DNA of 64,000 nucleotides from Gemmatimonadales bacterium (lineage in GTDB: Bacteria; Gemmatimonadota; Gemmatimonadetes; Gemmatimonadales; GWC2-71-9). Where the stretch lies: contig DASSQQ010000102.1 of assembly GCA_035702425.1 (NCBI GenBank), positions 6,747-70,746 on the forward strand. Direction: 5' to 3'. The notes beneath the pieces were generated by a model. It was given only the letters and a program-made list of their open reading frames with translations. It did no database searches and was not told the origin of the DNA. Shown in pieces: positions 12,179-33,859 of the stretch. Made by a program: the position numbers and the translations under genes. Each line of letters begins with the position of its first letter. The first letter of the stretch is position 1.

Positions 12179-13312
12179 ATGGGAATCGCCTGGAGCAGGT
12201 TCGCCCGGGGAGTCCTGGCACTCACCGCCACCCTCGCGACCGCGTGCGGCCGCCAGCGGGCGCCGAGGGTCATCGGCTACGCGTACGCCTCGGTCGAGAA
12301 CAGCGTGGTGGCGCTGGCGCGGGAAACGATGCGCGCCTGGCCCGGATTCACTCCCCCGGAGGTGTTGAGCGCCCGCCGCAACGTCAGCTGGGCCGGGCCG
12401 GCCGGCGAGGTCCAGCGGGCCGCGAAGCTCGTGGCCATGCCCGGGCTGGTGGGCGTCGTGGGACCGGCGAGCAGTCGGGAGACGCTGGTCTCCGCTCCCA
12501 TCTACGACGAAGCCGGGATTCCGGTGATCATCCCCAACGCCAACAGCCGGCTCCTGCGACAGGGCGGACCCTGGCTCTTCCGGCTCGCGCCCGACGACTC
12601 GATCGAGGGCGATTTCATCGCCGGGTACGCGGCGGGCGGACTCCGCGTGCACGCCGTGGTGGTGCTCTACGAGAACGACGAGTACGGTCTGGGCCTCCGG
12701 GACGGCGTGAAGGCGGGCCTCGCGGCCCGTCACGTTCCGGTGGTGGCCGACCTGCCGCTCTCCGGCCCCTGCGCCGACGCGGCCGGCCGGCTCACCAGCG
12801 AAACCGACCTCGCGATCGAGACGGTCCGCCGCACGGGGGCGGACGCGGTGCTCCTCGCGAGTCAATCCGCTCTCGCCGCCTGCCTCGCCCGCGCCATCTA
12901 CGCCCGGAATCCGCGGGTTCACTTCCTCGCGGGCGACGGCGTCGAGAGCGCCAACCTGATTCTCGCCGGCGTGGGCCCCGCCGCGGGCGCGTTCTCGATC
13001 GCCGCCTTCTGGTATCCGGCCTTTCCCGACAGCGTTTCCCGCGCCTTCGTGACCCGATTCCGCGCGGCGGCCGATCGCGACCCGTCCCCGCACGAGGCGC
13101 TGGAGTACGACGCGCTGATCACCCTGGCGCGCGCCGTGCGCGAGGTGGGGCCCAGTCCCCGGGCGGTGCGCGCCTATCTGCTCTCGCTCGGCCTGGACCG
13201 CCCGCCCCTCGCGGGCGTCACCGGCGCCATCGGATTCGGGCCGGGCTTTCAGCGGCCGCTGTTCATGGTGCGCATCGACCGCGGCCGTGCCGTGCCGGTC
13301 GCGGCCCCGTGA
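12179..13312 (+). CDS. Type-1 periplasmic binding protein (LivK/amide-binding-like) lipoprotein
   Basis: 377 aa with a lipoprotein-like leader (LTATLATAC) and a PBP1 pattern (VVGPASSRETL, IPVIIPNA, VVLYENDEYG). Confidence 0.8.
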   Translation: MGIAWSRFARGVLALTATLATACGRQRAPRVIGYAYASVENSVVALARETMRAWPGFTPPEVLSARRNVSWAGPAGEVQRAAKLVAMPGLVGVVGPASSRETLVSAPIYDEAGIPVIIPNANSRLLRQGGPWLFRLAPDDSIEGDFIAGYAAGGLRVHAVVVLYENDEYGLGLRDGVKAGLAARHVPVVADLPLSGPCADAAGRLTSETDLAIETVRRTGADAVLLASQSALAACLARAIYARNPRVHFLAGDGVESANLILAGVGPAAGAFSIAAFWYPAFPDSVSRAFVTRFRAAADRDPSPHEALEYDALITLARAVREVGPSPRAVRAYLLSLGLDRPPLAGVTGAIGFGPGFQRPLFMVRIDRGRAVPVAAP

Positions 13313-16236
13313 CCCCGCCCCCGGCCCTGCGGCGGGGGATCGCTCTCCGCACCGCGCTCCGCGCCGCGGCGATCGGGGCCGGGGTCTACATCGCGCTGAT
13401 CGCCGCGGTCATCGCGTGGCGCATCAAGCCCACCGCCGATTCCCTGCGCGCCAAGAGCGTCGCCCTGCTCGCGCAATACAACCTGGTGCGGGCCCGGACC
13501 GACGCGCTCCGCTCCGCGCGCGACGAAATCGCGACCCTGGTGGCGAGCGGTCCCCGCGGCGAGGCCGCGCTGGCCGCGGTGCGCCGCCACGCCCTGCTGC
13601 TCGAGGCGAGACTCGACACCCTCGCTCCCGGCCGCTCGGCGGATCAGGTTCCGGGCATCCCCACGGGCATGCGCACCGTGCTCGCCGCGGCGACGGGAAC
13701 GCAGTCCAGTCTGGGCACCACGCTCTACCAGGCGCTCGCCGCGCTGCAGCTCGGACGCGGCAGCGAAGCGGCGGCCCGTCTCGACGACGCGGACTCCATC
13801 GCCGCGCTGCTCAACCGGCGGGTCGCCGACGCCGATCGCCTGGGGATGGTGGACCTGATCGCCCGGGAGCGCTCGCTCTCCGGCGCCCTGCGCACCGCGC
13901 TCTCCGCGCTCGCGGGGTGGATGGTGCTGGGCGCGTTCTTCGTGCCGCTGATCGCCGTCTTCGTGCAGCGCCGCTTCTACCGCCCGCTCGAGGAGCTCGA
14001 CCGCGGCCTGTCCCGGGTGGCGGGAGGCGACCTGGAGGGCTCGATCCCGGTGCGGCGTGCCGACGAGCTGGGACGGCTCGGCGCCCAGTTCAACCAGATG
14101 ACCGGCCTGCTGCGGGAGCGCGCGGAGGATGAGCGCCGGCGCCGGGAAGACCTCTCCGAGCGCTACCGGACCATGTTCGAGTCCGCCCCGGTAGGCATGG
14201 CGCTGGTGGACGCGCGGGGCCGATACCGCCAGGCCAATCCGGCGCTGGAACGCTTCCTCGGCTACCCGGCCGCCGAGCTCGCGGGACGCCACTTCAGCGA
14301 AGTCACGCTGCCTGAAGACGTGGCCGAGACCGACCGCCAGTTCCAGGCGCTGCTGTGGGGCGCGCGGGATCGTTTCGAAATGGAGAAACGCTACCGGCGC
14401 AAGGACGGCGACGTGGTGTGGGCGAGGCTCTCGGTGAACGCGGTGCGGGACGCCAAGGGCGTGCTGGTCCACACGGTCTCGATGATCGAAGACATCACGG
14501 CGCAGAAGCTCGACGAGGCGGCGGTCCGCGACCGCGACCAGCAGCTGCGAAGCCATCACGCGGCCCTGGTCCAGCTCGCGCAATCGCCGGCCCTCTACCA
14601 GGGCGACTCCCCCGCGACCTGGCGCGAGATCACCGAGTCGGCCGGACGCACCCTCGGCGTCGCGCGGGTGGGGATCTGGCTCTACGACGCCGAGCGCACC
14701 GCCATCCGCTGCGTGGATCTCTACGAGCTGCCGGCCAACCGCCACGGGACGCTGGGGGCCCATGCCGCCGCGGAATACCCGGCGTATCGCCGGGCGCTCG
14801 ACGAGGATCGGGTGATCGCGGCGCACGACGTGCACGCGGACCCGAGGACGCAGGAGCTGTCGGCCGGCCACGTCGCCACCGCCGCGGTCACCTCCCGCCT
14901 GGACGCGCCGATCCGGGTGGGCGGCCGGACGGTGGGCGTGGTCTGCCACGAGCACACTGGTCCCCCGCGGCAATGGAGCGCGGAAGCGCAGAGTTTCGCC
15001 GGCTCGATCGCAGACATCGCGGGGCTGGCCCTGCAGGCGGGCGAGCGCCGCCGCCTCGAAGAGCAGCTCCTGCAGTCACAGAAGCTCGACGCGGTGGGCC
15101 GGCTGGCGGGCGGCGTGGCGCACGATTTCAACAACCTGCTGTCGGCGATGCTCGGCTACGCCGAGATCACCCAGCGCTCGCTCGCCGCCGAGGACCCGCG
15201 CCGGGCGGACCTGGAAGAGATCCGGCGCGCGGGCCGGCGGGCGGCCGACCTCATCCATCAGCTCCTGGCCTTCGCCCGGCGCCAGGTGATCGAGCCGCGA
15301 GTGGTGAGCGTGAACGAGCTGATCGCGAACATGCAGAAGATGCTGCGGCGGCTGATCGGCGCCGACGTCGAGCTCGCCACCAGCCTGGCCCCGGACGCGG
15401 AGCCGGTGAAAGTGGATCCGGGACAGTTCGAGCAGGTGGTGATGAACCTGGTGGTGAACGCGCGGCACGCGATGCCCGCCGGTGGGAAGTTGATGGTCAC
15501 GACGGGTAACGTGCACTTCGCGCCGCCGCGCGCCGCGGAAGCGGGCGTGGCGCCGGGGCCTTTCGTGCGCGTCTCGGTGAGCGACACCGGGGTGGGCATG
15601 AGCGCCGAGACGATGAGCCGCGTCTTCGAACCCTTCTTCACTACCAAGGAGCCCGGCCAGGGGACCGGACTCGGCCTCGCCACCTGTTACGGGATCGTCA
15701 AGCAGGCCAACGGGCACATCGCGGTGACCAGCGAGGTCGGCTGCGGCACCACCTTCGAGATCTACCTGCCGGTCGCGGACGAACGGCCGGCGCAGGCCCC
15801 GGCGGCGGAGGAGGAGGCCGCGCCTTCCGGCACCGAGACGCTGCTCCTCGTCGAGGACGAGGAGCAGGTCCGGGCCATGGCCACCCGGCTCCTCGGCGCG
15901 CAGGGGTACGAGGTGCTCGCCGCGGGGGACCCCGACCAAGCGCTGGCGATCGTCCGCGACCACTCCGGGTCCATTCATCTGATGATCACGGACGTGGTCT
16001 TGCCGCGGATGAGCGGACGGGTGCTGGCGCAGCGGGTGATGGAGGCGCGGCCGGAGACGCGCGTGCTCTACATCTCGGGGTACGCGGAGGACGTGATCGT
16101 CCACCGCGGGGTGCTGGAGCCGGGAGTGTCCTACCTGCAGAAGCCCCTCACCGCCGCGACGCTGGCGCGTCGCGTGCGGGAGGTGCTCGATGCTCCGGTA
16201 CCAGTCAGGGCTTCGCCGCGCTCGCCACCAGCGTAG
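13309..16236 (+). CDS. Hybrid sensor histidine kinase (2TM-HAMP-PAS-GAF-HisKA-HATPase-REC)
   Basis: Track ORF 12100..16236 trimmed to GTG 13309, which forms a GTGA overlap with the PBP stop. It has an H-box (VAHDFNNLL), N and G boxes (NLVVNARHAM, DTGVGM, GTGLGLA), and a C-terminal receiver (LLLVEDE...MITDVVLP). Confidence 0.9.
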   Translation: MTPPPALRRGIALRTALRAAAIGAGVYIALIAAVIAWRIKPTADSLRAKSVALLAQYNLVRARTDALRSARDEIATLVASGPRGEAALAAVRRHALLLEARLDTLAPGRSADQVPGIPTGMRTVLAAATGTQSSLGTTLYQALAALQLGRGSEAAARLDDADSIAALLNRRVADADRLGMVDLIARERSLSGALRTALSALAGWMVLGAFFVPLIAVFVQRRFYRPLEELDRGLSRVAGGDLEGSIPVRRADELGRLGAQFNQMTGLLRERAEDERRRREDLSERYRTMFESAPVGMALVDARGRYRQANPALERFLGYPAAELAGRHFSEVTLPEDVAETDRQFQALLWGARDRFEMEKRYRRKDGDVVWARLSVNAVRDAKGVLVHTVSMIEDITAQKLDEAAVRDRDQQLRSHHAALVQLAQSPALYQGDSPATWREITESAGRTLGVARVGIWLYDAERTAIRCVDLYELPANRHGTLGAHAAAEYPAYRRALDEDRVIAAHDVHADPRTQELSAGHVATAAVTSRLDAPIRVGGRTVGVVCHEHTGPPRQWSAEAQSFAGSIADIAGLALQAGERRRLEEQLLQSQKLDAVGRLAGGVAHDFNNLLSAMLGYAEITQRSLAAEDPRRADLEEIRRAGRRAADLIHQLLAFARRQVIEPRVVSVNELIANMQKMLRRLIGADVELATSLAPDAEPVKVDPGQFEQVVMNLVVNARHAMPAGGKLMVTTGNVHFAPPRAAEAGVAPGPFVRVSVSDTGVGMSAETMSRVFEPFFTTKEPGQGTGLGLATCYGIVKQANGHIAVTSEVGCGTTFEIYLPVADERPAQAPAAEEEAAPSGTETLLLVEDEEQVRAMATRLLGAQGYEVLAAGDPDQALAIVRDHSGSIHLMITDVVLPRMSGRVLAQRVMEARPETRVLYISGYAEDVIVHRGVLEPGVSYLQKPLTAATLARRVREVLDAPVPVRASPRSPPA

Positions 16237-16756
16237 GACCCTTCGCGGCCGGTGAGACCACCAGCCGCACCCACATCCCCGCCGCGCCGTGGCCCGGCAC
16301 GGCGCAGAAGATGATGTAGTTCCCCGCCTGCGCCGCGATGAAGCGGACGTCCTGCTTCGCTTCGGCGCTGAGCCCGCCCGCCAGGTTGGACGTGGCGGCG
16401 TGCGCGAAGGCCGGAGTGACGGGGCCCACCGGAATGGGCTGGCTGTCGCGAATCACTTCGACCGAATGCGGAAGCATCTGGTCGTTGTTCCGCACGTGCA
16501 GCACCACCGTCCATCCCTCCGGAACGGTGAGCGTGAGGCCGCCGTCCTTGGCGCCGTCGAAATTCATTCCGGCGTTCAAGGGCGTGAGCCCGGCGATGAC
16601 CGTGAACTCGGCCGTTTTCGCGGTGGAATCGGTCTTGAGCCACGCCGAGGCGGCTTCCTTCCCCGCCGACCCCTGCGCTCCGGCTCCCGCGGCCAGGAGA
16701 CACAACCCCGCCGCGGCGGCCAGTGCCCTCGTTCCCTGCTTCGTCAGTGCGCGCAT
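16205..16756 (-). CDS. Type-1 copper protein, rusticyanin/sulfocyanin-like cupredoxin
   Basis: 183 aa with a signal peptide. Candidate Cu ligands are PHS...FCAVPGHGAAGMW (Cys-x4-His-x4-Met), close to the rusticyanin loop CQIPGHAATGM. GGGAG sits 5 nt upstream of the ATG. Confidence 0.8.
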   Translation of the reverse strand: MRALTKQGTRALAAAAGLCLLAAGAGAQGSAGKEAASAWLKTDSTAKTAEFTVIAGLTPLNAGMNFDGAKDGGLTLTVPEGWTVVLHVRNNDQMLPHSVEVIRDSQPIPVGPVTPAFAHAATSNLAGGLSAEAKQDVRFIAAQAGNYIIFCAVPGHGAAGMWVRLVVSPAAKGPTLVASAAKP

Positions 16757-16787
16757 CTTCGCTCCCGGTAAGGGTCGGAGGACCCGG

Positions 16788-18185
16788 TTAGTAGAGCAGC
16801 CAGGCGAGGACGTACAGCGTGTTGTTGTCCGACGCCTTGCGGCCGCCGCCGTTGTAGTTGGTCGTCCCGCCGTTGAACTTGCTGTACGCGACGTACTGGA
16901 ACTGGAGCCGGAAGTTCTGCCACGGCATCACGTCCCACTCCGCGATCAGTCCCCGGCTGTCGGGGCTTCCGCTCGCGGAGCCGGCGGCGGAGGAATCGGG
17001 CGCGTAGAGCCCGGCGTCCGTGGTGCCGGTGGTGCTGAAGGGCGCGAGGGTCGCGGCCCAGCGCTGGCCGTGGTGATACATCGCGTCGAAGCGGATGGTG
17101 GTGAGCTTGTCCAGCGAGTTCGCCGCGCCGCTCGACGGATCCCAGTGCTGGCGCTCCGAAATGAGCGTCCCGTCCAGCGTGGCGCTGTTCGACCCCATCA
17201 TCAGCATGTAGGCCACGTCGAAGGCCACGTCGGAGAACCGGTTGGTCGGCCCGGTCACGCCGCCCTGATACTCGGTCCCGGACATCCCGTACATCCCGAC
17301 CATCAGCGAATGCTCTCCCCAGGTGTTGGGCAGCGCCACGCGCCAGTAGGGCGCGAGACCCTTGATCACGCCGGTGGAGGTGCTGTCGAAGGGACGGGCC
17401 ACGCCCAGTTGGGCCGAGCGATAGCCGCCGACCTCGGCGTAGATCTGGTTGTTCCACATCGAGTAGGCGGTGAGGCCCGCCACCTGGCCGCCCAGGGTCC
17501 CGTCGATCATCGTGGCGGCGGTGGGAGTCGGCGCGGCGGGCGAGCTGCCGTAGGGGAAACCCCACGCCGGCGTGCTGTTCCACAGGTCCTGCACCGTCGG
17601 ATTGTTGTTGACGCTCACCCCGAACACGGTGTGTTTGGAGAAGAGCGTGGTGTTGTTGGCGTAGCGGAAATCCGCGTTGTCGATCCCCAGCGAGCCGTCC
17701 TGTGGATCGAAGGTGACCTGGAGGAACCCGCCGACGTGCGGCGTGACTTCGCCGCCGGTGAAGATGCTCACCTGGTCGGGGAAGAACACGATGCCGTTCT
17801 GGGTCCCGGGCTGGGCCTTGGCGGTGGCGGTGTAGGAGGTCTGGAACATCACCGAGAGCGGCGGCACCAGGTTGAGGAGCAGATTCTGCTCGCCCTCGGG
17901 GCTCCGGCCCTGCAGTGAGTCGGCGCGACGGAAGACGTAGCCGTTGAGCTTGAAGGCCCGTCCCATCGGCGTGAGCTCGGGGTAGTGGGTGTGGCAGGCG
18001 CTGCAGGCGAGGCCCGTCTGCCGGGCGAACGCCGGGGTCAGGTCGAAGGTTTTGTGGGCATAGGACGCTTCATACGACCGCACCGCCGCCGTCCGGTCAT
18101 ACCGGCCGCCGGAAGCGCTGAGAGCCCGGGGAACCACCGCCAGCACCGCCGTACCCGCCACCAACATCCCGAATCGACGCCACAT
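16788..18185 (-). CDS. Cyc2-like fused monoheme cytochrome c / outer-membrane beta-barrel
   Basis: Track ORF trimmed to ATG 18185 (GAGGAG 9 nt upstream). The protein has a signal peptide and a single CSACH heme motif in FARQTGLACSACHTHYPELTPMGRAFKLNGY. About 400 aa of beta-rich sequence follow and end in YVLAWLLY. Confidence 0.65.
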   Translation of the reverse strand: MWRRFGMLVAGTAVLAVVPRALSASGGRYDRTAAVRSYEASYAHKTFDLTPAFARQTGLACSACHTHYPELTPMGRAFKLNGYVFRRADSLQGRSPEGEQNLLLNLVPPLSVMFQTSYTATAKAQPGTQNGIVFFPDQVSIFTGGEVTPHVGGFLQVTFDPQDGSLGIDNADFRYANNTTLFSKHTVFGVSVNNNPTVQDLWNSTPAWGFPYGSSPAAPTPTAATMIDGTLGGQVAGLTAYSMWNNQIYAEVGGYRSAQLGVARPFDSTSTGVIKGLAPYWRVALPNTWGEHSLMVGMYGMSGTEYQGGVTGPTNRFSDVAFDVAYMLMMGSNSATLDGTLISERQHWDPSSGAANSLDKLTTIRFDAMYHHGQRWAATLAPFSTTGTTDAGLYAPDSSAAGSASGSPDSRGLIAEWDVMPWQNFRLQFQYVAYSKFNGGTTNYNGGGRKASDNNTLYVLAWLLY

Positions 18186-18285
18186 AGTCCCGCTCCTCGT
18201 GAAAGAGTGACTGACGCCGCGCGCCAACCGTCACGGTTATGGGGAACAAGGCTATGTGCGACCGAGGGTTCGGAAGGTGAAGACT

Positions 18286-19290
18286 CTATGAAGGGTTCTT
18301 CAACAACGCCCGGGCGGCGGCGAGGACCCTCGCCTCCGCCTCCGCCAGGGTTCCGTCGAGCGACGCGCCCGCCGCCTTCTTGTGGCCCCCGCCGCCGAAC
18401 TGGCCGGCGAGCCGCGCCACGTCCACGGCGCCCATGGAGCGGAACGAAACCTTGATTCGGCCGTTCGCGAGCTCGCGGAAGAGGAGCGCGAGACGCACCC
18501 CGGCGATCGAGCGCGGGAACTCCACGATGCCGTCGAGGTCGTCGGGAGAGGCGTCGTAGCGCTCGAGGGACCCGGGCGGCACGGTCACCCAGGCGAGTCC
18601 GTCCTCCACCACCAGGGTCTGCAGCACCTCGGCGGTGAGGCGAATCCGCCCCTCGGGCGCGCTGGCGTAGACCTGCTCGTAGATCGTTTCCGGATCCACG
18701 CCGCGCTCGAGGAGGTCCCCGGCGACGCGGAGGGCGCGGGCGCTGGTGTTCGAGAACCGGAACGCCCCGGTGTCGGTGAGAAGGCCGACGTAGAGCGCCC
18801 GCGCGGCGTCGGCGGGGAGTTCCCAGCCCAGCGCGGTCGCGAAATCGAAGATCAGCTCCGCGGTGGCCGCGGCCTCGGGCGCCACCAGGCGCGGCCCTTC
18901 GGGGAGGGTGCCGGGGCTGACGTGATGATCCACGCATCCCACCGGGATCTTCGCCGCGCGGACCGCCTGGCCCAGGTCGCCGAGGCGGGAGAGGTCCGCG
19001 ATGTCCAGCACGATCACCGCGTCGGCCCGGCCGATTTCCTTCACCGCCCGGTCGCTCACGTCCGCGCCGCCGGGGATCAGGAAATCGAACCGCTCCGGGA
19101 TGGGCGTGGGGTTCGCGATGAGGGGGCGCGCGCCGCGGGCGGCGAGGAGGTGCCACATCCCCACTTCACTCCCCAACCCGTCCCCGTCGGCGTTGACGTG
19201 CGTGGTCAGGACGATCCGGGCCTCCTGCTTGACGAGCTTCGCGATTTCCCGGGCGGCCGCTACGCGGTCCGGGGGAACGGTGAGGGTCAT
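18286..19290 (-). CDS. nrnA: DHH-family phosphoesterase (NrnA-like oligoribonuclease / pAp phosphatase)
   Basis: It has DHH (HVNADGDGLGS, VDHH) and DHHA1 (GGGHKKAAG) motifs. ATG at 19290 is preferred over the track's TTG at 19308. Confidence 0.85.
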   Translation of the reverse strand: MTLTVPPDRVAAAREIAKLVKQEARIVLTTHVNADGDGLGSEVGMWHLLAARGARPLIANPTPIPERFDFLIPGGADVSDRAVKEIGRADAVIVLDIADLSRLGDLGQAVRAAKIPVGCVDHHVSPGTLPEGPRLVAPEAAATAELIFDFATALGWELPADAARALYVGLLTDTGAFRFSNTSARALRVAGDLLERGVDPETIYEQVYASAPEGRIRLTAEVLQTLVVEDGLAWVTVPPGSLERYDASPDDLDGIVEFPRSIAGVRLALLFRELANGRIKVSFRSMGAVDVARLAGQFGGGGHKKAAGASLDGTLAEAEARVLAAARALLKNPS

Positions 19291-19353: not shown

Positions 19354-20847
19354 CTAGACGCCCTTCTTCAGCGCCTGGCGCAGTTTGCTGTGCCTGACGC
19401 CGTAGGTGAAGTAGATCCCGAAGCCGATCACCAGCCACACCACCAGCCGGATCCAGGTGTCGACCGGCAGGGTGAGCATCAAGCCCAGACAGCTCACCAT
19501 GCCGAGGATGGGGACCAGGGGCACGAGCGGCGTGCGGAAGGGCCGTTCGAGATCGGGCCGGGTGTGCCGCAGGACCCAGACGCCGCCGCACACCAGCACG
19601 AACGCGAGCAGGGTGCCGATGTTGACCAGCTGCCCGAGGAGCTGAATCGGGAACAGGCCGGTGAACAGGGCGACGGCGACCCCGGTGTACATGGTCGAGA
19701 GGTACGGCGTGCGGAACCGGGGGTGCACCTTCCCCGCCCAGGGGCCGAGGAGGCCGTCGCGGGACATGGAGTAGAACACGCGGGACTGGCCGAGGAGCAT
19801 CACCAGAATGGTGGACCCGAGGCCCAGCACGGCGCCGATGGTGATGACCGGGAGGAACCAGGCGAGCTGGGGCACCATCTGCACCACGGTGATGAGCGGC
19901 GCGGGGACGTTGAGGAGCTGGTACTGCACCAGGCCGGTGAGCACCAGCGACACCAGCACGTAGAGCGCGGTGCACGCGAGGAGCGATCCCAGGATCCCCA
20001 CCGGCATGTCCTTCTGGGGGTTCTTCGCCTCCTGCGCGGCGGTGCTCACCGCGTCGAATCCGATGAACGCGAAGAAGATCACCCCCGCCCCGCGCAGCAC
20101 GCCGGACCAGCCGTAGCTCCCCCAGGCCCCGTTGTTGGGCGGCACGAAGGGGTGCCAGTTGCCGGCCTTCACGTACAGGAACCCGCAGGCGATGAAGATC
20201 AGCAGGACGCCGACCTTCACCAGCACCACGAAGGTGTTGAACCGCGCGGACTCCCGGATCCCGATCACCAGGATGGCGGTGATCGCGAGAATGATGAGGA
20301 TGGCCGGGAGATTCACCACCGCGCCGGTGCCGTTCCAGCCGGGGTGGGTACACCCCGCCACCTGCATCACCTGCGCGGCGGTGCAGACCTGGAAGGGCGG
20401 GTTCGCGACCGCGGCCGGAAGGTGGATGCCCAGGATCTCGAGGAACGCGACGAAGGTCGCGGACCACCCGGCGGCCACCGTCGCCGCGCCCATCGCGTAC
20501 TCGAGGATCAGGTCCCAGCCGATGATCCAGGCGATCAGCTCGCCCAGCGTCGCGTAGGAATACGTGTACGCGCTCCCGGCGACCGGGACCGCGCTCGCCA
20601 TCTCGGCGTAACAGAGCCCGGCGAACCCGCAGCCGATACCCGCGAAGATCATCGAGACCGGGACGGCGGGACCGGCGTAGAGCGCCGCGGCGACGCCGGT
20701 GAAGACGAAGATGCCGGCTCCCACGATGGCGCCGATGCCGAGGGTGGTGAGCTGGAGGGGGCCGAGGGTGCGCTTGAGCGCGTGTTCCCCGGGCGCATCC
20801 GCCTCGGCGCGGAGCGTCGCGATGGGTTTGGTGGCGAGGAGGTTCAT
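19354..20847 (-). CDS. APC-superfamily amino acid permease (cationic amino acid transporter-like)
   Basis: 497 aa and multi-TM, with LGIGAIVGAGIFVFTG and SAYTYSYATLGELIAWIIGWDLILEY. Confidence 0.9.
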   Translation of the reverse strand: MNLLATKPIATLRAEADAPGEHALKRTLGPLQLTTLGIGAIVGAGIFVFTGVAAALYAGPAVPVSMIFAGIGCGFAGLCYAEMASAVPVAGSAYTYSYATLGELIAWIIGWDLILEYAMGAATVAAGWSATFVAFLEILGIHLPAAVANPPFQVCTAAQVMQVAGCTHPGWNGTGAVVNLPAILIILAITAILVIGIRESARFNTFVVLVKVGVLLIFIACGFLYVKAGNWHPFVPPNNGAWGSYGWSGVLRGAGVIFFAFIGFDAVSTAAQEAKNPQKDMPVGILGSLLACTALYVLVSLVLTGLVQYQLLNVPAPLITVVQMVPQLAWFLPVITIGAVLGLGSTILVMLLGQSRVFYSMSRDGLLGPWAGKVHPRFRTPYLSTMYTGVAVALFTGLFPIQLLGQLVNIGTLLAFVLVCGGVWVLRHTRPDLERPFRTPLVPLVPILGMVSCLGLMLTLPVDTWIRLVVWLVIGFGIYFTYGVRHSKLRQALKKGV

Positions 20848-20850
20848 GGG

Positions 20851-20889
20851 GAAAAAATGCGGCGCGGCTGGATGGCTCCAACCGCGCCG
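20851..20889 (-). terminator. Intrinsic-terminator-like hairpin plus T6 tract
   Basis: The minus strand reads CGGCGCGG-14 nt-CCGCGCCG-CATTTTTTCCCC-ATG. The stem is 20860-67 / 20882-89 and the T-run is 20852-57. It ends 4 nt before the permease ATG. Confidence 0.45.
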
Positions 20890-20922
20890 GGACGACCGGG
20901 ACTTCCCGGGGGCTGAGCGGGG

Positions 20923-21753
20923 CTAGGGCGCGCCCTGGGTGAGCAGGTTCCGCCGGTAGCGCCGGGAGAGACTCACCCGCACGCCGGAGTGCAGGATCAC
21001 CACCGCGTCCCCGTGGAACCAGGGCTGGACCTCGCGGACCCGGTCGATGTTCACCAGCGCGGAGCGGTTCACGCGGCGGAAGCGCTCGCCGTCCAGCCGC
21101 TCCTCGAGGGAGGAGAGCGTGGCCCGGAGGAGGTGGGACCGCTCCCCGATGTGGAGCCGCACGTAGTTCTTCGCGGCCTCGAGCCAGTCCACGTCCGCGG
21201 TGCGGACGAAGAACGAACGCCCGTCCTCGTCCACCAGCAGGCGGTCCGCCGGCCGGCGCCGCGCAACCCGCTCCTCGAGATCGGCGAGCGCGGCGCGCCG
21301 CGCTTCCAGGTCCCGGTGGTAATCGTGGGCGTGAACGATGGCGAGGATCGCCCAGTAGACGATCACGTTCCAGTGGTAGAAGAGCGTGAAGTTGTCGAGC
21401 AGCTTGTCGGCGAAGACGAAGGGCTGGCCCGCCGCCGCGTACAGCAGATTCTGGAGCCCCACCGACAGCACCAGGTGGAGCATGGCGAGGTCCAGGCTCG
21501 CGCCCAGGTGAATGAAGAAGTGGCGGCCGAAATTCGAGCGGTCCACCTGGAAGCGGCGGCCGAACCAGGCGACCAGCGGCGCGAAGACGCCCCACAGGTA
21601 CCAGGTGGAGAGACTCGCGGCGAGGGCCTGGGCCCAGGTGCCGGGATGGGACGCGAGCCGCTGGTCAGCGAAAAAGAGCTGGAGCGAGGAGGCGAACCCC
21701 AGGAAGGACCAGAAGGCGACCCACTTGAGCCAGAGCAGAAGGCGCGCGCGCAT
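20923..21753 (-). CDS. Membrane-anchored LytTR-domain DNA-binding protein
   Basis: Track ORF trimmed to ATG 21753. The protein is 276 aa with about 4 N-terminal TM helices. The C-terminal LytTR domain reads FFVRTADVDWLEAAKNYVRLHIG..LRATLSSLEERL..FRRVNRSALVNIDRV. Confidence 0.8.
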   Translation of the reverse strand: MRARLLLWLKWVAFWSFLGFASSLQLFFADQRLASHPGTWAQALAASLSTWYLWGVFAPLVAWFGRRFQVDRSNFGRHFFIHLGASLDLAMLHLVLSVGLQNLLYAAAGQPFVFADKLLDNFTLFYHWNVIVYWAILAIVHAHDYHRDLEARRAALADLEERVARRRPADRLLVDEDGRSFFVRTADVDWLEAAKNYVRLHIGERSHLLRATLSSLEERLDGERFRRVNRSALVNIDRVREVQPWFHGDAVVILHSGVRVSLSRRYRRNLLTQGAP

Positions 21754-21756
21754 ACC

Positions 21757-21798
21757 CTGAAAAGATACGACGGCCGGCCTCCCGCGGGAGACCGGCCG
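21757..21798 (-). terminator. Terminator-like GC palindrome plus T-rich tract
   Basis: The minus strand reads CGGCCGG-TC-TCCCGCGGGA-GG-CCGGCCG, then TCGTATCTTTTCAGGGT, then the LytTR ATG (21753). Confidence 0.4.
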
Positions 21799-21818
21799 CC
21801 GGACGCGTCCTCTCCGGG

Positions 21819-23273
21819 CTACTGGGCCCGGTTCAGCCGGGAGTGCTTGTAGCTGTACGCGATATAGACCACCATCCCGATCAGGAACCAGACGATCAGC
21901 CGGATCCAGGTGACGGGCGGCAGGGACTTCATGAGGTAGGCCGCGCAGAAGGCGCCCGCCGGCGCCACGAACCACACCCACGGGGTCTTGAAGGTGCGCG
22001 GCAGGTTCGGCTCCCGCAGCCGCAGGACCAGGATGCCCACCGAGACGATCACGAACGCCAGCAGGGTGCCGATGGAGACCAGGCTCGCCGCGTCCCGGAT
22101 GGGGAGAATCGCCGAGAAGAACGCGACGGCGATGCCGGTGATGATGGACGTGATGTACGGCGTCTGGAACCGGGGATGGATCCGGTTCACGAACTGCGGC
22201 AGGAGTCCGTCCTTGGACATGGTCCAGAAGACGCGGGACTGCCCGAGGAGCATCACCAGGATCACCGAGGAGAGCCCCGCGATGGCGCCGAGCTTGATGA
22301 AGGTGGACATCCAGCCCAGGCCCGCGTGGTCGGCCACGACGGCGATGGGGTCGGGCACGTTCAAGTCCTTGTAGCTCATCACGCCGGTCGCGATCCCGGA
22401 GACCAGGATGTAGAGCACGGTGCAGATCAGGAGCGAGCCGATGATGCCGATCGGCATGTCTTTCTGGGGATTTTTCGCTTCCTGCGCCGCCGTGCTCACC
22501 GCGTCGAACCCGATGTAGGCGAAGAACACGATAGCGCCGCCGGTCATCACTCCGCTCCAGCCGAAGAGCCCCGGCTGGGGGACGCCGTTCACCACGGTCT
22601 GCGGGGGAATGAAGGGGTGCCAGTTGGCCGGGTTCACGGCCTTGGCGGCGAAGGCGATGAACAGCAGCACCACCGCCACCTTCACGAACACGATGAAGTT
22701 GTTGAAGTTCGCGGACTCCTTGATGCCGATGACCAAGAGGGCGGTGACCAGCGCGATGATGATGACGGCGGGCAGGTTGAAGATGGCCGTCACCGTGGTG
22801 CCGTCGGCGCAGGTGACCGCGACGCCCCGCGCCGCCGCGAGCGAGCAGGGCACGTTGATCCCGAAGTCGTGCAGGAAGCTCACCACGTACCCGGACCACC
22901 CGATGGCCACCGTGACCGCTCCCAGCGCGTATTCAAGGATCAGGTCCCAGCCGATGATCCAGGCGATGAGCTCGCCCAGGGTGGCGTAGCCGTAGGTGTA
23001 GGCGCTGCCGGCCATGGGGACGAGGGAGGCGAACTCGGAGTAGCAGAGCGCCGCGAAGATCGACGCGACCCCGGCCGCGACGAAGGAGAGCACCACCGCC
23101 GGCCCGGCGTTCACCGCCGCCACCGTCCCGGTGAGCACGAAGATGCCGGTGCCGATGATGGCGCCGATGCCGAGCATGGTCAGATTGAGCGCGCCCAGGG
23201 CGCGCTTCAGACTATGGTCGGTCTGGGCTTCGGCCTGCAGCTCGGTGACGCTTTTCCGTCGGAAAAGGTTCAT
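21819..23273 (-). CDS. APC-superfamily amino acid permease (paralog of 19354..20847)
   Basis: ATG at 23273 is preferred (MNLFRRKS). The same conserved blocks appear as in the other permease (LGIGAIIGTGIFVLTG, SAYTYGYATLGELIAWIIGWDLILEY). Confidence 0.9.
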   Translation of the reverse strand: MNLFRRKSVTELQAEAQTDHSLKRALGALNLTMLGIGAIIGTGIFVLTGTVAAVNAGPAVVLSFVAAGVASIFAALCYSEFASLVPMAGSAYTYGYATLGELIAWIIGWDLILEYALGAVTVAIGWSGYVVSFLHDFGINVPCSLAAARGVAVTCADGTTVTAIFNLPAVIIIALVTALLVIGIKESANFNNFIVFVKVAVVLLFIAFAAKAVNPANWHPFIPPQTVVNGVPQPGLFGWSGVMTGGAIVFFAYIGFDAVSTAAQEAKNPQKDMPIGIIGSLLICTVLYILVSGIATGVMSYKDLNVPDPIAVVADHAGLGWMSTFIKLGAIAGLSSVILVMLLGQSRVFWTMSKDGLLPQFVNRIHPRFQTPYITSIITGIAVAFFSAILPIRDAASLVSIGTLLAFVIVSVGILVLRLREPNLPRTFKTPWVWFVAPAGAFCAAYLMKSLPPVTWIRLIVWFLIGMVVYIAYSYKHSRLNRAQ

Positions 23274-23321
23274 GAGGGACCTCTTGTAAGGGAGAAGCAC
23301 TGCTTCGAGAACGTCGGTATG

Positions 23322-26236: not shown

Positions 26237-27799
26237 ATGCCCAAGCCGAGCGCATCCCGCACCCCGGTCGTCCTGATCGTCCTCGACGGCTGGGGGTTCC
26301 GCCCCGGCGCGGACGGGAACGCCATCGAGCTCGGCAGAACTCCCGTCTGGCACCGGCTCTGGGAGCGCGCCCCGCGCGCCCTGCTCGAGGCCTCGGGGCT
26401 CGCGGTGGGACTTCCCGAAGGGCAGATGGGAAACAGCGAAGTGGGGCACCTGAACCTCGGCGCCGGACGCGTGGTGCCGCAGGACATCGTCCGCATCTCC
26501 CAGGCGATCCAGTCCGGCGAGTTTTTCCAACTCGAGCCCGCGGTCGAGTTGTGCGAGCAGGTCAAGCGGTCGAAGGGGACCCTGCACCTGATCGGGCTCA
26601 TCGGGACGGGCGGGGTGCACGCGCTCGACACCCACCTGCTCGCCGCGGTCGAGCTGGGGCGCCGCGCCGGGGTGCCGGTGGCGATCCACGCCTGGACCGA
26701 CGGACGGGACACCCTCCCCAGGTCGGGGCTCGCGTTCATGGAGGAGCTGCTGCGGCACGTGGGACGTGACACGGGAGACGGGAGCCGGACCCCGGTGGCG
26801 ATCTCGACCGTCGTGGGACGCTACTACGCGATGGACCGCGACCGGCGCTGGGACCGCACCAAGCTCGCCTACGACGCGATGGTGCACGGCGCGGCCCCCG
26901 AGGTCGCCGATCCCCTCACCGCCATCCGCGACGCCTACGCCGCGGGGGAGACCGACGAGTTCATCAAGCCCCGGGTGATCCGGGGAGCGCCGCGCATCAA
27001 GTCCGGGGACGGGGTGTTCTGCTTCAACTTCCGCGCCGACCGGATGCGGCAGATGGTGCGGGCGCTCGCGCTGGAAGGCTTCGACGGGTTCGACACCGGC
27101 GCCCGGCCGCGCGTCTCGCTCGTCACCATGACCCAGTACGACGCCACCTTTCCCTTTCCGATGGCGTTCGGTCCGATGGTGTTGCGGGAGATCGTGGGCA
27201 AGGTGCTGTCCGACCGGGGCAAGACCATGTTCCGCACCGCCGAGACCGAGAAGTACGCGCACGTCACCTACTTCTTCAACGGCGGCCTCGAGGTCCCCTT
27301 CCCCAACGAGGAGCGGCTCCTCGTGCCCTCGCAGAAAGTGGCGACCTACGACCTGATGCCCGAAATGAGCGCGCCCGGCGTGACCGACGTGCTCTGCGGC
27401 GCCATCAAGAAGGGCCGCCACGACTTCATTCTCTGCAATTACGCCAACGGGGACATGGTGGGGCACTCGGGGGTACTACCCGCCGCGGTGCGGGCGGTCG
27501 AGACGGTGGACACCTGCCTCGCCCGGGTCCTCCAGACCGCGGAAGACGCGGGCGCCACGCTCCTCATCACCGCCGACCACGGGAACTGCGAGCTGATGAT
27601 CGACCCGGCCACGGGAGGACCCCACACCGCCCACACCACCAACCCGGTGCCACTGGTGCTGGTGGGGAACGGCGGGTCCGGCAAGGTTAGCTTGCGGGCC
27701 GGCGGCTCCCTCTCGGACGTGGGCCCCACGCTGCTCCACCTGCTCGGCCTCGAGCCCCCGCCCGAAATGACGGGGAAAGATCTGCGGGAGATGGAATGA
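26237..27799 (+). CDS. gpmI: 2,3-bisphosphoglycerate-independent phosphoglycerate mutase
   Basis: 520 aa with VLDGWG, GQMGNSEVGHLNLGAGR and TADHGN motifs. Confidence 0.95.
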   Translation: MPKPSASRTPVVLIVLDGWGFRPGADGNAIELGRTPVWHRLWERAPRALLEASGLAVGLPEGQMGNSEVGHLNLGAGRVVPQDIVRISQAIQSGEFFQLEPAVELCEQVKRSKGTLHLIGLIGTGGVHALDTHLLAAVELGRRAGVPVAIHAWTDGRDTLPRSGLAFMEELLRHVGRDTGDGSRTPVAISTVVGRYYAMDRDRRWDRTKLAYDAMVHGAAPEVADPLTAIRDAYAAGETDEFIKPRVIRGAPRIKSGDGVFCFNFRADRMRQMVRALALEGFDGFDTGARPRVSLVTMTQYDATFPFPMAFGPMVLREIVGKVLSDRGKTMFRTAETEKYAHVTYFFNGGLEVPFPNEERLLVPSQKVATYDLMPEMSAPGVTDVLCGAIKKGRHDFILCNYANGDMVGHSGVLPAAVRAVETVDTCLARVLQTAEDAGATLLITADHGNCELMIDPATGGPHTAHTTNPVPLVLVGNGGSGKVSLRAGGSLSDVGPTLLHLLGLEPPPEMTGKDLREME

Positions 27800-28542
27800 A
27801 CCAGGAAACAACTGCGGCGGAGGGACGGAAAGACGGAGGGCGGATGGCACGGCGAGCAGCGATGCTCTTCCTGCTTCCGCTTTCCGTCCTTCCGTCTTTC
27901 GGTCGTCTGTCGGCTCAAGTGGGCTACGACCCCGCCCACTCGCCCTACCAGGACATGCAGAAGGGGATGGGACCGGTGGCGTTCGTCGGATATCTCGCGG
28001 GCGACCGCGGCACCGTGGGCGTGGGGCCGTCGAACGGCGCGACCTTCGGCGTGCGCTGGGACGTGAACCTGGGGGGCACCGTGGCGTTCCTGGTGAGCTT
28101 CGCCGACGCCCGCACCAACCGCTTCATCGTGGACCCGACCCAGGACTCGACCGTCCGGAAATCGGGGCCGGTGTCGAACCCGGTGGTGCTCGCGGACGTC
28201 GGCCTCGAGGTGCTGCTCACCGGCGGGAAGACCTACCACCACCTCGCCCCGTACCTGCAGACCGCGCTCGGCTTCGCCTTCGGCTCGAGCACCGCGCGCG
28301 ACACCTCGGGCTACGATTTCGGCACCAAGTTCACGCTGGCGCCCGGCGCCGGGATCCGCTGGTACCCGTCGCGCCGCATCTGCGTGCAGACCGATCTCCG
28401 CCTGCTGTTCTGGAAGCTCAAGTATCCGCTCTCCTACAAGGTGCCCGCGTCCGACTCGAGCCGCGTGCTCCCGGTGAGCGCCCCCGACGGTGACTGGACC
28501 ACGCATCCCTGGCTGACCCTCGGCGTGGGATGGACTTTCTAG
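27796..28542 (+). CDS. Small outer-membrane beta-barrel-like protein
   Basis: ATG 27796 forms an ATGA overlap with the gpmI stop. An alternative ATG at 27844 is preceded by GGAGGG. It has a signal-like segment and ends in the aromatic LTLGVGWTF. Confidence 0.6.
   Translation: MNQETTAAEGRKDGGRMARRAAMLFLLPLSVLPSFGRLSAQVGYDPAHSPYQDMQKGMGPVAFVGYLAGDRGTVGVGPSNGATFGVRWDVNLGGTVAFLVSFADARTNRFIVDPTQDSTVRKSGPVSNPVVLADVGLEVLLTGGKTYHHLAPYLQTALGFAFGSSTARDTSGYDFGTKFTLAPGAGIRWYPSRRICVQTDLRLLFWKLKYPLSYKVPASDSSRVLPVSAPDGDWTTHPWLTLGVGWTF
27822..27902. repeat. Palindromic repeat element, copy A (arms of 8-nt repeats GACGGAAR)
   Basis: The 13-bp stem 27828-40 / 27888-900 contains one G.U pair. The right arm ccgctttccgtccttccgtctttcggtcg matches 53674-53702 at 26 of 29 positions. 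Confidence 0.5.
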
Positions 28543-29225
28543 GCGACGGCCTGCGCCGAGCCCTCGGCCTGCTGTTCGCCGGGGACCCGGAGACCTACGG
28601 CGTCGCCCTCCTCACCTTCAAGGTGGCGGCCGTCGCCACCGTCATCGCCTGCGCCGCCGGCATCCCCGCCGGGTTTCTGCTCGCCTCGCGGCCCTTCTGG
28701 GGCCGGCGCGCGGCGCTCACGGTGGTGAATACCGCGCTCGCGTTCCCGACGGTGCTGGTCGGCCTTCTTCTATATGGCCTGCTCTCGCGGCGGGGTCCGC
28801 TGGGCGGCCTCTCGATGCTCTACACCTGGCAGGCCATCGCCCTGGGCGACGTGCTGCTCGCCTTCCCCATCGCGGCCGCGCTCTCGGCCGCCGCGGTGCA
28901 GGGCGTGGACCCGCGGGTCCGCCGCACCGCGCTCACCCTCGGGGCCGGTCCGTGGCGCGCGGCGTGGACCGTGGCCCGGGAGGCGCGCTTCGCGCTCGCC
29001 GCGGCGATCACCGCCGCGTTCGGCCACGTGATCGCCGAGATCGGCTCGGCGATGATCGTCGGCGGCAACGTGCGCGGGCAAACCCGGACCCTCACCACCG
29101 CGATCGCGCTCTCCACGTCGCAGGGCGATTTCGGCCTCGCGCTCGCGCTGGGAATCATTCTCCTCGTGCTGGCGCTGCTCGTGAACGTGGCGCTGCAGGT
29201 GCTCCAGGGGCGCGGCGATGCTTGA
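28530..29225 (+). CDS. ABC transporter permease (tungstate/molybdate TupB-like small permease)
   Basis: 231 aa and multi-TM, resembling a binding-protein-dependent transport inner-membrane component. It overlaps the neighbours on both sides. Confidence 0.75.
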   Translation: MDFLGDGLRRALGLLFAGDPETYGVALLTFKVAAVATVIACAAGIPAGFLLASRPFWGRRAALTVVNTALAFPTVLVGLLLYGLLSRRGPLGGLSMLYTWQAIALGDVLLAFPIAAALSAAAVQGVDPRVRRTALTLGAGPWRAAWTVAREARFALAAAITAAFGHVIAEIGSAMIVGGNVRGQTRTLTTAIALSTSQGDFGLALALGIILLVLALLVNVALQVLQGRGDA

Positions 29226-30201
29226 GCTGGTCGGCGTGAAGCACCGCTACGCGGGCCGCCTGGTCCTCGATCTCGACCGCTTCCTGGTCCCCGACCGCTC
29301 CGCCGTGGCCATCGTGGGCCACAACGGCTCGGGCAAGAGCACCCTGCTCCGGCTGCTCGCCTCTCTGGAGTCGCCGAGCGAGGGCGTGGTGCGCTTCGAC
29401 GGCAGGCCCGCGGCGGGCGAGCGGCGGCGGGTGACCCTGGTGGAGCAGCGGCCGGTGCTCTTCCGCGGGACCGTCCGGGAGAACATCGCCTACGGCCTGC
29501 GCGCGCGGGGCCGCCGGGCGAGCGAGATCGAGCGCCAGGTGTCGCGGGTCTCGGAACGGCTCGGCCTCTCCGCCCTGCTCGGGCGCCGGCGCCAGCAGCT
29601 GTCCGAGGGCGAGGTTCAGCGGGTGGCGGTGGCGCGCGCGCTCGCGATCGAGCCCGACGTCCTGCTCCTCGACGAGCCCGCGGCGTCGGCCGATCGCGCG
29701 GCGTCGCAGGCGCTCTATCGCGCGCTCGACGAGGAGCGCCGGGCGCGTCCGCTCGCGGTGTGTGTCGCGTCGCACCAGCTGGAGGACGCCTACCGCTGGA
29801 CCGACGACATCCGGGCGCTGGCGGAAGGGCGGCTCTCCCCGGTGACGCCCGAGAATCTCTTCCGGGTGGACCTCCCCGGCCCCGACGCCGGGGGCCTGCA
29901 GCACGTCGCCGTGGGGGGGATCCGGATCGCGGTGGTGAGCGACAAGACCGGCCCCGCCATCCTCGCCGTCCCGCCCACCGACGTGCTGGTGAGCCGCGAG
30001 CCCCTGCCTTCGTCCGCGCGCAACGTGTTCCGGGGGAAGGTCACCCGCCTCGCCCGCCAGCGGGGGGGCGTCCACCTCTCCGCGGACGTGGGCGTGGAGC
30101 TCGTGGCCGCGATCACCGAGGAAGCGACGCGCGATCTCGCCCTCGCGCCGGGGGCCTCCGTGGTGTTTTCGTTCAAGGCGAGCGCGGTGCGAGTATTCTG
30201 A
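29218..30201 (+). CDS. ABC transporter ATP-binding protein with C-terminal TOBE/Mop-like domain
   Basis: It has Walker A (GHNGSGKST), the signature LSEGEVQRV, and Walker B (LLLLDEP). The C-terminal ~90 aa (NVFRGKVTRLARQRGGVHLSADVG...) is TOBE-like. Confidence 0.85.
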   Translation: MLELVGVKHRYAGRLVLDLDRFLVPDRSAVAIVGHNGSGKSTLLRLLASLESPSEGVVRFDGRPAAGERRRVTLVEQRPVLFRGTVRENIAYGLRARGRRASEIERQVSRVSERLGLSALLGRRRQQLSEGEVQRVAVARALAIEPDVLLLDEPAASADRAASQALYRALDEERRARPLAVCVASHQLEDAYRWTDDIRALAEGRLSPVTPENLFRVDLPGPDAGGLQHVAVGGIRIAVVSDKTGPAILAVPPTDVLVSREPLPSSARNVFRGKVTRLARQRGGVHLSADVGVELVAAITEEATRDLALAPGASVVFSFKASAVRVF

Positions 30202-30203
30202 CA

Positions 30204-30623
30204 ATGGCCACGGCCTACCTGACCACGATCCTCGAGTTCACCGCCGGGCACCGCATCCGGCGCGCCGACCTCACGCCGGAACAGAACGCGGCCGAGTTCG
30301 GCAAGGCCGCCGCCGACCACAGTCACAAGTACCGGGTGCAGGTGACGGTGGCGGGGCGGCTCCAGCCCGAGAAGAAAGGCGTGATCAATCTGAAGGAGCT
30401 GGACCGGATCCTGAAAACCGAAATCACGGAACGGCTGGACGGCAAGTCCATCAACGAGGCGATCCCCGAGTTCGCGGACGGCAAACGGCTCGCGACCGGT
30501 GAGGCGCTGGCGGTGTATTTCTGGGAGCGGCTCGCCTCCCGGCTCCCCGAGGGCGCGCGGCTCCACGCGGTGCGGGTCCAGGAGAGCGACCATCTCTACT
30601 CCGAGTACTTCGGTGAAGCGTAA
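30204..30623 (+). CDS. 6-pyruvoyl-tetrahydropterin synthase / QueD-fold protein (divergent)
   Basis: Track ORF trimmed to ATG 30204. The protein is 139 aa. EFTAGHRI and DHSHKY match the Zn-binding His positions of PTPS/QueD. The Cys of the E. coli QueD HKCGRLHGH block is Ala here. Confidence 0.75.
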   Translation: MATAYLTTILEFTAGHRIRRADLTPEQNAAEFGKAAADHSHKYRVQVTVAGRLQPEKKGVINLKELDRILKTEITERLDGKSINEAIPEFADGKRLATGEALAVYFWERLASRLPEGARLHAVRVQESDHLYSEYFGEA

Positions 30624-30717
30624 GCCCGGCGAGCCGCCCGCGTCCCCCCTCTCCGCAACGGAGAGGGCGTCGGGGGGTGAGGACTCGCGCCCCGCCCCCG
30701 GCTCCCGCCGCGGCCGG

Positions 30718-31841: not shown

Positions 31842-31876
31842 CGCGCACCGTGCCACTGCCACGAGAGCGAGGTCCA

Positions 31877-32716: not shown

Positions 32717-32718
32717 GC

Positions 32719-33857: not shown

Positions 33858-33859
33858 CC

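Follow-up and report, generated by a model that had tools for sequence, protein, structure and literature searches.

A Cyc2-type heme porin and a SoxE-family cupredoxin encoded side by side in a soil Gemmatimonadales genome: a probable outer-membrane electron conduit

We analyzed a 64-kb stretch of DNA from contig DASSQQ010000102.1 of a Gemmatimonadales bacterium (hereafter the window; G+C 70%, about 47 genes called), in which a gene for a fused monoheme cytochrome-porin of the Cyc2 family is followed by a gene for a secreted type-1 copper protein of the SoxE family. On balance, we favor the view that this two-gene operon is an inward electron conduit of the outer membrane, in which electrons, most likely from Fe2+, pass from a heme pore to the cupredoxin. 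The view is built on the domain architecture of the two proteins, the conservation of the heme and copper sites, the fold of the barrel and the linkage of the genes. The closest relatives of the window, in both homolog and species-genome searches, are uncultured soil Gemmatimonadales. The features of the locus, with coordinates in the window and lengths in amino acids (aa) or nucleotides (nt), are as follows.

16788..18185, minus strand: gene for the Cyc2-family fused monoheme cytochrome-porin, 465 aa, with ATG start, TAA stop and GAGGAG upstream
18114..18185, minus strand: Sec-type signal peptide, aa 1-24, MWRRFGMLVAGTAVLAVVPRALSA, with predicted cleavage before SGG (read from the sequence)
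18015..18035, minus strand: PAFARQT, the Cyc2 diagnostic PXFAR[Q/K][T/Y], aa 51-57, three residues before Cys61 (from the sequence)
17973..18005, minus strand: heme c site CSACH, aa 61-65, then THY and PEL (aa 69-71; PXL at +4) (from sequence and conservation)
16794..17858, minus strand: predicted 16-strand outer-membrane beta-barrel, aa 110-464, with the aromatic C-terminus ...AWLLY (from DSSP on the AlphaFold2 model, and Foldseek)
16757..16787, minus strand: 31-nt spacer between the two genes, containing the GGGAG ribosome-binding site
16205..16756, minus strand: gene for the SoxE-family type-1 copper protein, 183 aa, secreted (Pfam PF06525)
16463-16468, minus strand: fourth copper ligand His97 with Ser98, in LPHS (from conservation)
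16271..16309, minus strand: copper loop FCAVPGHGAAGMW, aa 150-162, with ligands Cys151, His156 and Met161 (from conservation and the alignment to 1RCY)

A preliminary description of the sequence had reported a 465-aa secreted protein with exactly one CxxCH motif (CSACH) after the signal peptide and a secreted cupredoxin starting 31 nt downstream. Both reports were borne out, the first with FARQTGLACSACHTHYPELTPMGRAFKLNGY present as described. The identical porin occurs on four public metagenome contigs, where independent gene calls give the same 465-aa and 183-aa products. Shine-Dalgarno-like sites precede both genes, GAGGAG before the ATG of the porin and GGGAG before that of the cupredoxin. 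A TTG start at 18227, which would give a protein of 479 aa, was dropped for the ATG at 18185, the latter being backed by its Shine-Dalgarno site and by the public gene calls. A scan of positions 15900-18500 found no promoter or terminator, such a scan being uninformative for this phylum. Since the spacer holds no detected terminator, the two genes are probably co-transcribed.

As read from the sequence, the signal peptide of the porin runs from a basic n-region through a hydrophobic core of 14 residues to an A-L-S-A site. It is followed by a variable stretch of about 25 residues and then by LTPAFARQTGLACSACHTHYPELTPMGRAFKLNGY, which holds the sole CxxCH; the CSACH codons (nt 17991-18005) lie about 35 residues past the signal peptide. 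Conservation of this motif had been proposed as a check on the assignment, and the motif was kept among close and distant homologs alike. The porin has at least 4902 homologs. Exactly one CxxCH is present in all 116 full-length proteins among the best 120 (52-77% identity), the four without the motif being fragments with truncated N-termini. When 1.84 billion cluster representatives were searched with a profile, 4273 relatives came up at E ≤1e-3 and 647 at E ≤1e-30. Among the best 150 of these relatives (33-50% identity), 125 of the 126 representatives of at least 400 aa again have exactly one CxxCH, and the sole exception starts at profile position 105, so that its N-terminus is apparently missing. 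Around the heme site, 60 homologs all share P51, R55, Q56 and T57, and the conservation of these four residues is still 92% or more in 123 representatives. In the latter, C61, C64, H65 and L71 are 100% and P69 is 96% conserved, and their consensus reads A-x-P-x-[FY]-[AS]-R-Q-T-G-x2-C-x2-C-H-x3-P-x-L-x3-G-R-x-F-K. Barrel residues are strongly conserved too, for example R174, D200, R282, D323 and E344, a trait out of the ordinary for Cyc2, and 123 of 150 representatives end in F, Y or W. The search for a distal heme ligand ended with rejected candidates: Met113 is kept in only 75% of the representatives, and His343 and His371 are not conserved. One family representative of 641 aa (P0203) is extended at its N-terminus by 200 residues, which include several long hydrophobic stretches and look like a multi-span membrane protein; the extension is either a real fusion or the product of two merged gene calls.

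The barrel expected from the beta-strand-like sequence up to YVLAWLLY, which is indeed how the porin ends, was recovered by structure prediction. The AlphaFold2 model, calculated from a 60-sequence alignment, has a mean predicted local distance difference test score (pLDDT) of 81 and 16 long strands over aa 110-464, mostly at pLDDT 85-96. Foldseek matched the model to the 16-strand porins Omp32, OmpF, OprP (2O4V) and OprO (4RJW) with E values of about 1e-8 to 1e-7, and OprP and OprO are the structures reported for the Cyc2 porin (Keffer et al., PMC8406198). By sequence, no unrelated porin family lays claim to the protein: neither the single sequence nor a profile gave a match in Pfam, NCBIfam or the PDB, and the family is without a curated model.

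Keffer et al. 2021 (PMC8406198) diagnose Cyc2 by AXPXFAR[Q/K][T/Y] ahead of the heme site and PXL four residues past it, along with a signal peptide, a single CXXCH, a porin of 16 strands and a total of 365 aa or more. The window porin has the signal peptide, the single CXXCH, PXFAR[Q/K][T/Y], PXL at +4, the length and the predicted 16 strands, and its motifs, length and modelled fold thus place it, at the level of sequence and model, with the Cyc2 type. As in the Cyc2 proteins of the Acidithiobacillus ferrooxidans rus operon and Mariprofundus PV-1 and in Leptospirillum Cyt572, the signal peptide is followed by one N-terminal CXXCH flanked by both motifs, the size is about 450 aa, the porin is OprP/OprO-like, and the gene is usually linked to one for a periplasmic carrier. 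Two departures are seen. Residue 49 is Leu in the window porin instead of the leading Ala of the Cyc2 consensus, which is also present in 94% of the family, and the window operon consists of two genes only, the cyc1, cox and cta genes of the rus operon being absent from it.

The family was found in at least 592 species in a scan of one genome per species. The best 80 species hosts include Gemmatimonadales, Ignavibacteriales, Bacteroidota, Steroidobacteraceae, Burkholderiales, Calditrichaceae and others. Members on megaplasmids of Ralstonia solanacearum (41% identity, E 8e-72) carry the motif VPAFARQTGMACMACH..PEL, and Ralstonia and Burkholderia are listed among the genera rich in Cyc2 homologs (PMC8406198), which ties the window family indirectly to the published Cyc2 set. 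Other plasmid copies occur in Caballeronia and Paraburkholderia, and one plasmid is found both in Acidiphilium cryptum and in an A. ferrooxidans assembly. A member in Acidihalobacter prosperus was considered as the cyc2 of a rus operon and proved to be a stand-alone gene: on the A. prosperus-type contig (L177:10001-11353) no redox genes surround it. Since this acidophilic iron oxidizer is known for its rus operon, the window type of protein can accompany a canonical cyc2.

The second protein of the pair is matched end to end by the Pfam SoxE domain PF06525, with E 1.8e-18 and 66.9 bits against a gathering cut-off of 21 (profile positions 5-145 of 149). It has 377 homologs; all 120 listed carry PF06525 and the NCBI name 'sulfocyanin-like copper-binding protein', and JGI likewise names homologs sulfocyanin or sulfocyanin-like. 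His97, Cys151, His156, Met161 and Ser98, the last being the counterpart of rusticyanin Ser86, are invariant in 41 aligned homologs. The closeness of the copper loop and the upstream PHS to rusticyanin, pointed out in the preliminary description, was recovered in the HMMER alignment to 1RCY, which pairs the loop and LPHS with VCQIPGHAATGMF and GHS. In the PDB sequence search rusticyanin accounts for 9 of the 15 matches (E 1.4e-5 over 113 residues); the lowest whole-sequence E, 7.8e-6, belongs to copper nitrite reductase, which matches via its cupredoxin domains only. The AlphaFold2 model (pLDDT 77.6) has rusticyanin as its top nine Foldseek hits (E about 1e-6), followed by auracyanin, and azurin and pseudoazurin are not leading among these matches. 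No match to PF00127 (plastocyanin/azurin/pseudoazurin) was found at E up to 1, and azurin II appears in the PDB search only at E 0.16, so the protein groups with SoxE and rusticyanin, not with azurin or pseudoazurin.

The proposed rusticyanin/sulfocyanin-type assignment therefore stands as to family (SoxE) and nearest fold (rusticyanin), but not as equivalence to either protein. The NCBIfam scores are far under the cut-offs, at 63 bits against 168.4 for the sulfocyanin equivalog TIGR03094 and 37.4 bits against 146.7 for the rusticyanin equivalog TIGR03095, and the cupredoxin is thus an equivalog of neither. With rusticyanin of A. ferrooxidans (1RCY, 1A8Z, 2CAK), its best solved match by sequence and fold, it shares the Cys-x4-His-x4-Met loop, the Ser after the first His ligand and an operon with a Cyc2. 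However, the identity is 22-24% and the TM-score about 0.5, so that it is not an ortholog, and the acid stability and very high potential of rusticyanin are not implied. Sulfocyanin SoxE, known from the archaeal SoxM complex and from Ferroplasma iron oxidation, shares the full domain, but the window protein is bacterial, probably soluble rather than a lipoprotein or membrane anchored, and no oxidase adjoins it. Its signal peptide ends in a conserved A-x-A/Q site. Lipoprotein anchoring through Cys19 was rejected, as this residue lies outside any lipobox and is not conserved. Because the signal is cleavable and the N-terminal Cys not conserved, the mature protein is, to judge from its sequence, probably soluble in the periplasm. 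Nitrite reductase was dropped as a general partner: a NirK-like gene occurs in only about five related loci and not in the window.

If the pore heme hands electrons to a periplasmic shuttle, interchangeable carriers are expected in one slot of the gene neighborhood, and this is the pattern seen across 84 distinct loci of the heme-porin family. In 53 of them the immediate same-strand neighbor encodes a small periplasmic electron carrier: a class-I cytochrome c (mono- or diheme) in 38, a SoxE cupredoxin in 11 and a plastocyanin/azurin-type cupredoxin in 4. Pfam confirmed examples of each class (a true PF00127 cupredoxin adjoins the member at L026, for example), and the three classes never co-occur in one locus. 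Small same-strand open reading frames with CxxCH have a density of 0.40 per kb within 600 bp of the porin gene versus 0.028 per kb at 2.5 kb or more, an enrichment of about 14-fold. The interchangeable filling of the slot beside the pore by cytochrome c, high-potential iron-sulfur protein (HiPIP) or cupredoxins supports a conduit role for the whole family.

Individual loci add detail to this neighborhood, and the HiPIP and the Rieske and cytochrome b/c genes among them were confirmed with Pfam. On plasmid pSBC1_3 of Caballeronia sp. SBC1 (L093:3912-6929), a HiPIP gene stands upstream of the family member and a diheme c-type cytochrome gene downstream, a three-gene set that resembles iron-oxidation modules with Iro or PioC type carriers, here in soil Burkholderiaceae. 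In Bacteroidales and Kryptoniota (L049:8315-10273 and L072:4255-4800), the Cyc2-like gene has as neighbors genes for a Rieske protein and for a cytochrome b with fused c-type heme domains, an arrangement that hints at a direct link to a bc-type complex. In a relative with 55% identity (L009:214-9946), a two-heme c-type cytochrome with tetratricopeptide repeats (NCBIfam c_type_nonphoto) precedes the Cyc2-like/SoxE pair, and genes for the ferrous-iron transporter FeoAB are found about 6 kb away.

In the species-genome set the cupredoxin follows the porin only in the closest Gemmatimonadales clade (at least 55% identity to the window porin), at 11 loci; within this clade one species is without the cupredoxin and two contigs end too early to tell. 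Starting instead from the cupredoxin, we surveyed 83 metagenome loci with copies 49-74% identical. The gene stands directly after a Cyc2-like gene in 22 of these loci and directly after a gene for a pyrroloquinoline quinone (PQQ) dehydrogenase in 52, the other 9 being unclassed because the contig end was too close or the upstream gene was not recognized. Overall the Cyc2-like/cupredoxin pair was found in 32 loci. In a neighbor-joining tree the PQQ-linked cupredoxins make up one clade, around which the 32 Cyc2-linked copies branch, with a mean identity of 56% between the two groups. The PQQ enzyme scores 446 bits against TIGR03075 (methanol/ethanol family), for which the cut-off is 480.

The PQQ operon of Gemmatimonadales is itself of a regular build. 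At L096:1988-8038, and likewise at L094, L106, L109, L130 and about 50 other metagenome loci, the order is a PqqU-like TonB-dependent receptor, the methanol/ethanol-family PQQ dehydrogenase, the SoxE-type cupredoxin and a porin-like protein of 396 aa with ...FMLFF as its C-terminus. Quinoprotein dehydrogenases depend on a small one-electron acceptor in the periplasm, such as cytochrome c550, amicyanin or azurin, and in this operon the cupredoxin appears to replace the usual cytochrome c550; the hosts may import PQQ rather than make it. The likeness to quinoprotein alcohol and amine dehydrogenases with their acceptors (ExaB/PedF cytochrome c550, amicyanin, azurin) lies in the co-transcription of an input enzyme with a small one-electron carrier, whereas the input module in the window is an outer-membrane heme pore and not a soluble PQQ enzyme. 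Given a sister clade behind PQQ dehydrogenases, the cupredoxin is to be seen as a general periplasmic acceptor and not as an iron-specific marker. Taken together, the two operon types suggest that the gene just upstream plausibly encodes the reductant of the cupredoxin, and by this analogy the cupredoxin family plausibly accepts electrons from the upstream-encoded protein.

A mechanism for the window pair can be proposed along these lines. The porin precursor would be exported by Sec, one heme c would be attached to CSACH by the cytochrome c maturation system, and the 16-strand barrel would be inserted in the outer membrane by the beta-barrel assembly machinery. In keeping with what has been proposed for Cyc2, the short N-terminal heme peptide would remain within the pore's periplasmic mouth or right at it. 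A small soluble extracellular reductant, most likely Fe2+, would enter the pore and reduce the heme, which would in turn reduce the periplasmic type-1 copper protein (His97, Cys151, His156, Met161), and from the cupredoxin the electron would reach a terminal oxidase or reductase with its gene outside the window. Heme attachment, direction of flow, donor and final acceptor are what we infer here. The preliminary description had proposed a module for Fe(II) oxidation or electron uptake. The single N-terminal heme motif, the strand-rich porin sequence and the cupredoxin on which that proposal leaned are present, and Fe(II) is the most likely substrate, to judge by the three Cyc2 proteins that have been assayed.

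Several observations count against an inward conduit for Fe2+ electrons. What is known of the role of this sub-family comes from sequences and models, and its kinship to the assayed Cyc2 proteins (A. ferrooxidans, M. ferrooxydans PV-1 and Leptospirillum Cyt572) was judged from the published description of their motifs and fold. The sub-family is 45-77% identical across phyla, far above the 17-30% reported between Cyc2 clusters, and because of this higher conservation it may have a narrower or different job. The N-terminal region 22-106 of the porin was modelled with low confidence (pLDDT 40-65), as is expected without the heme. In 31 of the 84 family loci no carrier is adjacent. Pfam scans of the genes called in the window found no terminal oxidase, no cytochrome c other than the porin, in agreement with the preliminary description of the neighboring genes, and no carbon-fixation genes; the remaining genes are housekeeping or heterotrophic ones with no sign of lithotrophy.

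It is possible, if on the unlikely side, that the same heme pore and cupredoxin are at work in a physiological role other than lithotrophic iron oxidation, such as the use of other soluble reductants (reduced humic or quinone compounds, Mn(II)), the detoxification of Fe(II), or extracellular redox reporting in an aerobic heterotroph. The heterotrophic gene context fits this alternative, as does the occurrence of the family, across its 592 or more species genomes, in plant pathogens and soil heterotrophs not known to oxidize iron, the example hosts being Ralstonia, Caballeronia, Bacteroidota and Ignavibacteriales. It also fits the sister clade of the cupredoxin, which serves PQQ dehydrogenases, and the direction and role of Gemmatimonadota Cyc2 hits are not readable from annotation (PMC11316326). 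On the other hand, all Cyc2-family proteins assayed so far oxidize Fe(II) (PMC8406198, PMC13647500), large organic reductants would probably not fit the pore, by analogy with one of OprP/OprO size (PMC8406198), and the FeoAB genes near one related locus are a weak hint of a link to iron.

Outward flow, from periplasmic or inner-membrane dehydrogenases through the cupredoxin and the heme pore to Fe(III) chelates, Mn oxides or another extracellular acceptor, is in our judgment quite improbable. A single heme can in principle work both ways, the sister cupredoxin evidently receives its electrons from a periplasmic dehydrogenase, and annotation does not assign the direction (PMC11316326). Yet the known outward conduits (MtrCAB) rely on a multiheme wire inside a barrel of 26 strands rather than on a single heme in a 16-strand pore (PMC8406198). 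The window contains no multiheme gene and no CxxCH gene besides the porin. More generally, the window system resembles MtoAB, PioAB and MtrCAB in that electrons cross the outer membrane via a heme protein held in a barrel, but those systems have a separate decaheme protein in a 26-strand barrel and the window has one polypeptide, one heme and 16 strands; with this strand number and a single fused heme, the porin falls outside the pattern of MtrB/PioB/MtoB porins. The partners found at other family loci (class-I cytochrome c, HiPIP, cbb3-type domains) are typical oxidase donors. Moreover, copper proteins of the rusticyanin/sulfocyanin type have high potentials and act at the oxidizing end of respiratory chains. 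Very improbable, too, is an ordinary diffusion porin or a channel for iron or heme uptake, in which the heme would be structural or regulatory and the cupredoxin functionally unrelated. The general porins Omp32 and OmpF are the best fold matches, and the 31 loci without an adjacent redox carrier would be explained; but such a porin sits poorly with the enrichment of small soluble redox carriers right beside the gene, with three carrier classes that substitute for each other in the same slot, with a heme motif essentially invariant down to 33% identity, and with the 31-nt spacer and a pair kept in 32 loci.

The genes around the pair are of other kinds. Its upstream neighbor encodes a DHH/DHHA1 phosphoesterase. 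On the other side, a hybrid histidine kinase gene with HAMP, PAS and GAF domains (975 aa, 13309-16236, plus strand) converges on the cupredoxin gene, the 3' ends overlapping by 32 nt, and is preceded by a periplasmic-binding-protein gene (12179-13312). At 19354-23300 on the minus strand, a gene for a LytTR-domain regulator stands between two paralogous genes for amino-acid permeases (497 and 493 aa); this permease/LytTR/permease order near the DHH gene is kept on related contigs, even where the Cyc2-like gene has moved or is without the cupredoxin (L005). A molybdenum cluster at 27796-35107 on the plus strand encodes a ModB-like permease, a ModC-like ATPase with a TOBE domain, an FdhD/NarQ-family protein and a long MoeA, which suggests a molybdoenzyme elsewhere in the genome, for example formate dehydrogenase or nitrate reductase. 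Besides the molybdate uptake and molybdenum cofactor genes and the amino-acid permeases, the window encodes ubiquinone synthesis, an extracytoplasmic function sigma factor, IMP dehydrogenase, electron-transfer flavoprotein and its quinone oxidoreductase, acyl-CoA dehydrogenase, CstA and an efflux pump.

The preliminary description placed the module in a lineage not classically linked to iron oxidation, and here the novelty is smaller than implied since Gemmatimonadota hits are already in print. FeGenie-based surveys have reported Cyc2 and, separately, sulfocyanin in Gemmatimonadota metagenome-assembled genomes (MAGs), the sulfocyanin being read as a putative iron oxidase (PMC11316326, PMC10367259), and clusters resembling the rus operon were pointed out in Gemmatimonadetes MAGs by a 2020 preprint (bioRxiv 10.1101/2020.03.01.968255). 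Within our incomplete coverage of the literature, we found no paper on a bicistronic Cyc2-SoxE pair or on a PQQ dehydrogenase-SoxE operon. The additions made here are modest: the pattern of carrier swapping across the family, and caution on sulfocyanin as a marker of iron oxidation. Surveys in the style of FeGenie count the 'sulfocyanin' of Gemmatimonadales among the iron-oxidation genes. It is more often found behind a PQQ dehydrogenase than behind Cyc2, and by itself it is therefore no evidence of iron oxidation.

No genetic marker for microbial iron oxidation is used more widely than Cyc2, and outside the classical iron oxidizers it may not carry the same meaning. The locus described here, from an order dominant in soils, can serve as a clean and minimal test case, with one heme pore and one copper protein, both small and expressible. 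Tentatively, and with low confidence, we suggest that in the abundant soil Gemmatimonadales copper proteins replace c-type cytochromes as the standard periplasmic shuttle, that one SoxE lineage was duplicated to serve both a Cyc2-type pore and a PQQ alcohol dehydrogenase, and that the pair makes nominal heterotrophs facultative users of Fe(II) or other reductants. If this is true, oxic soils would hold a widespread and unrecognized sink for reduced iron, and 'sulfocyanin' hits would be being misread as markers of iron oxidation.

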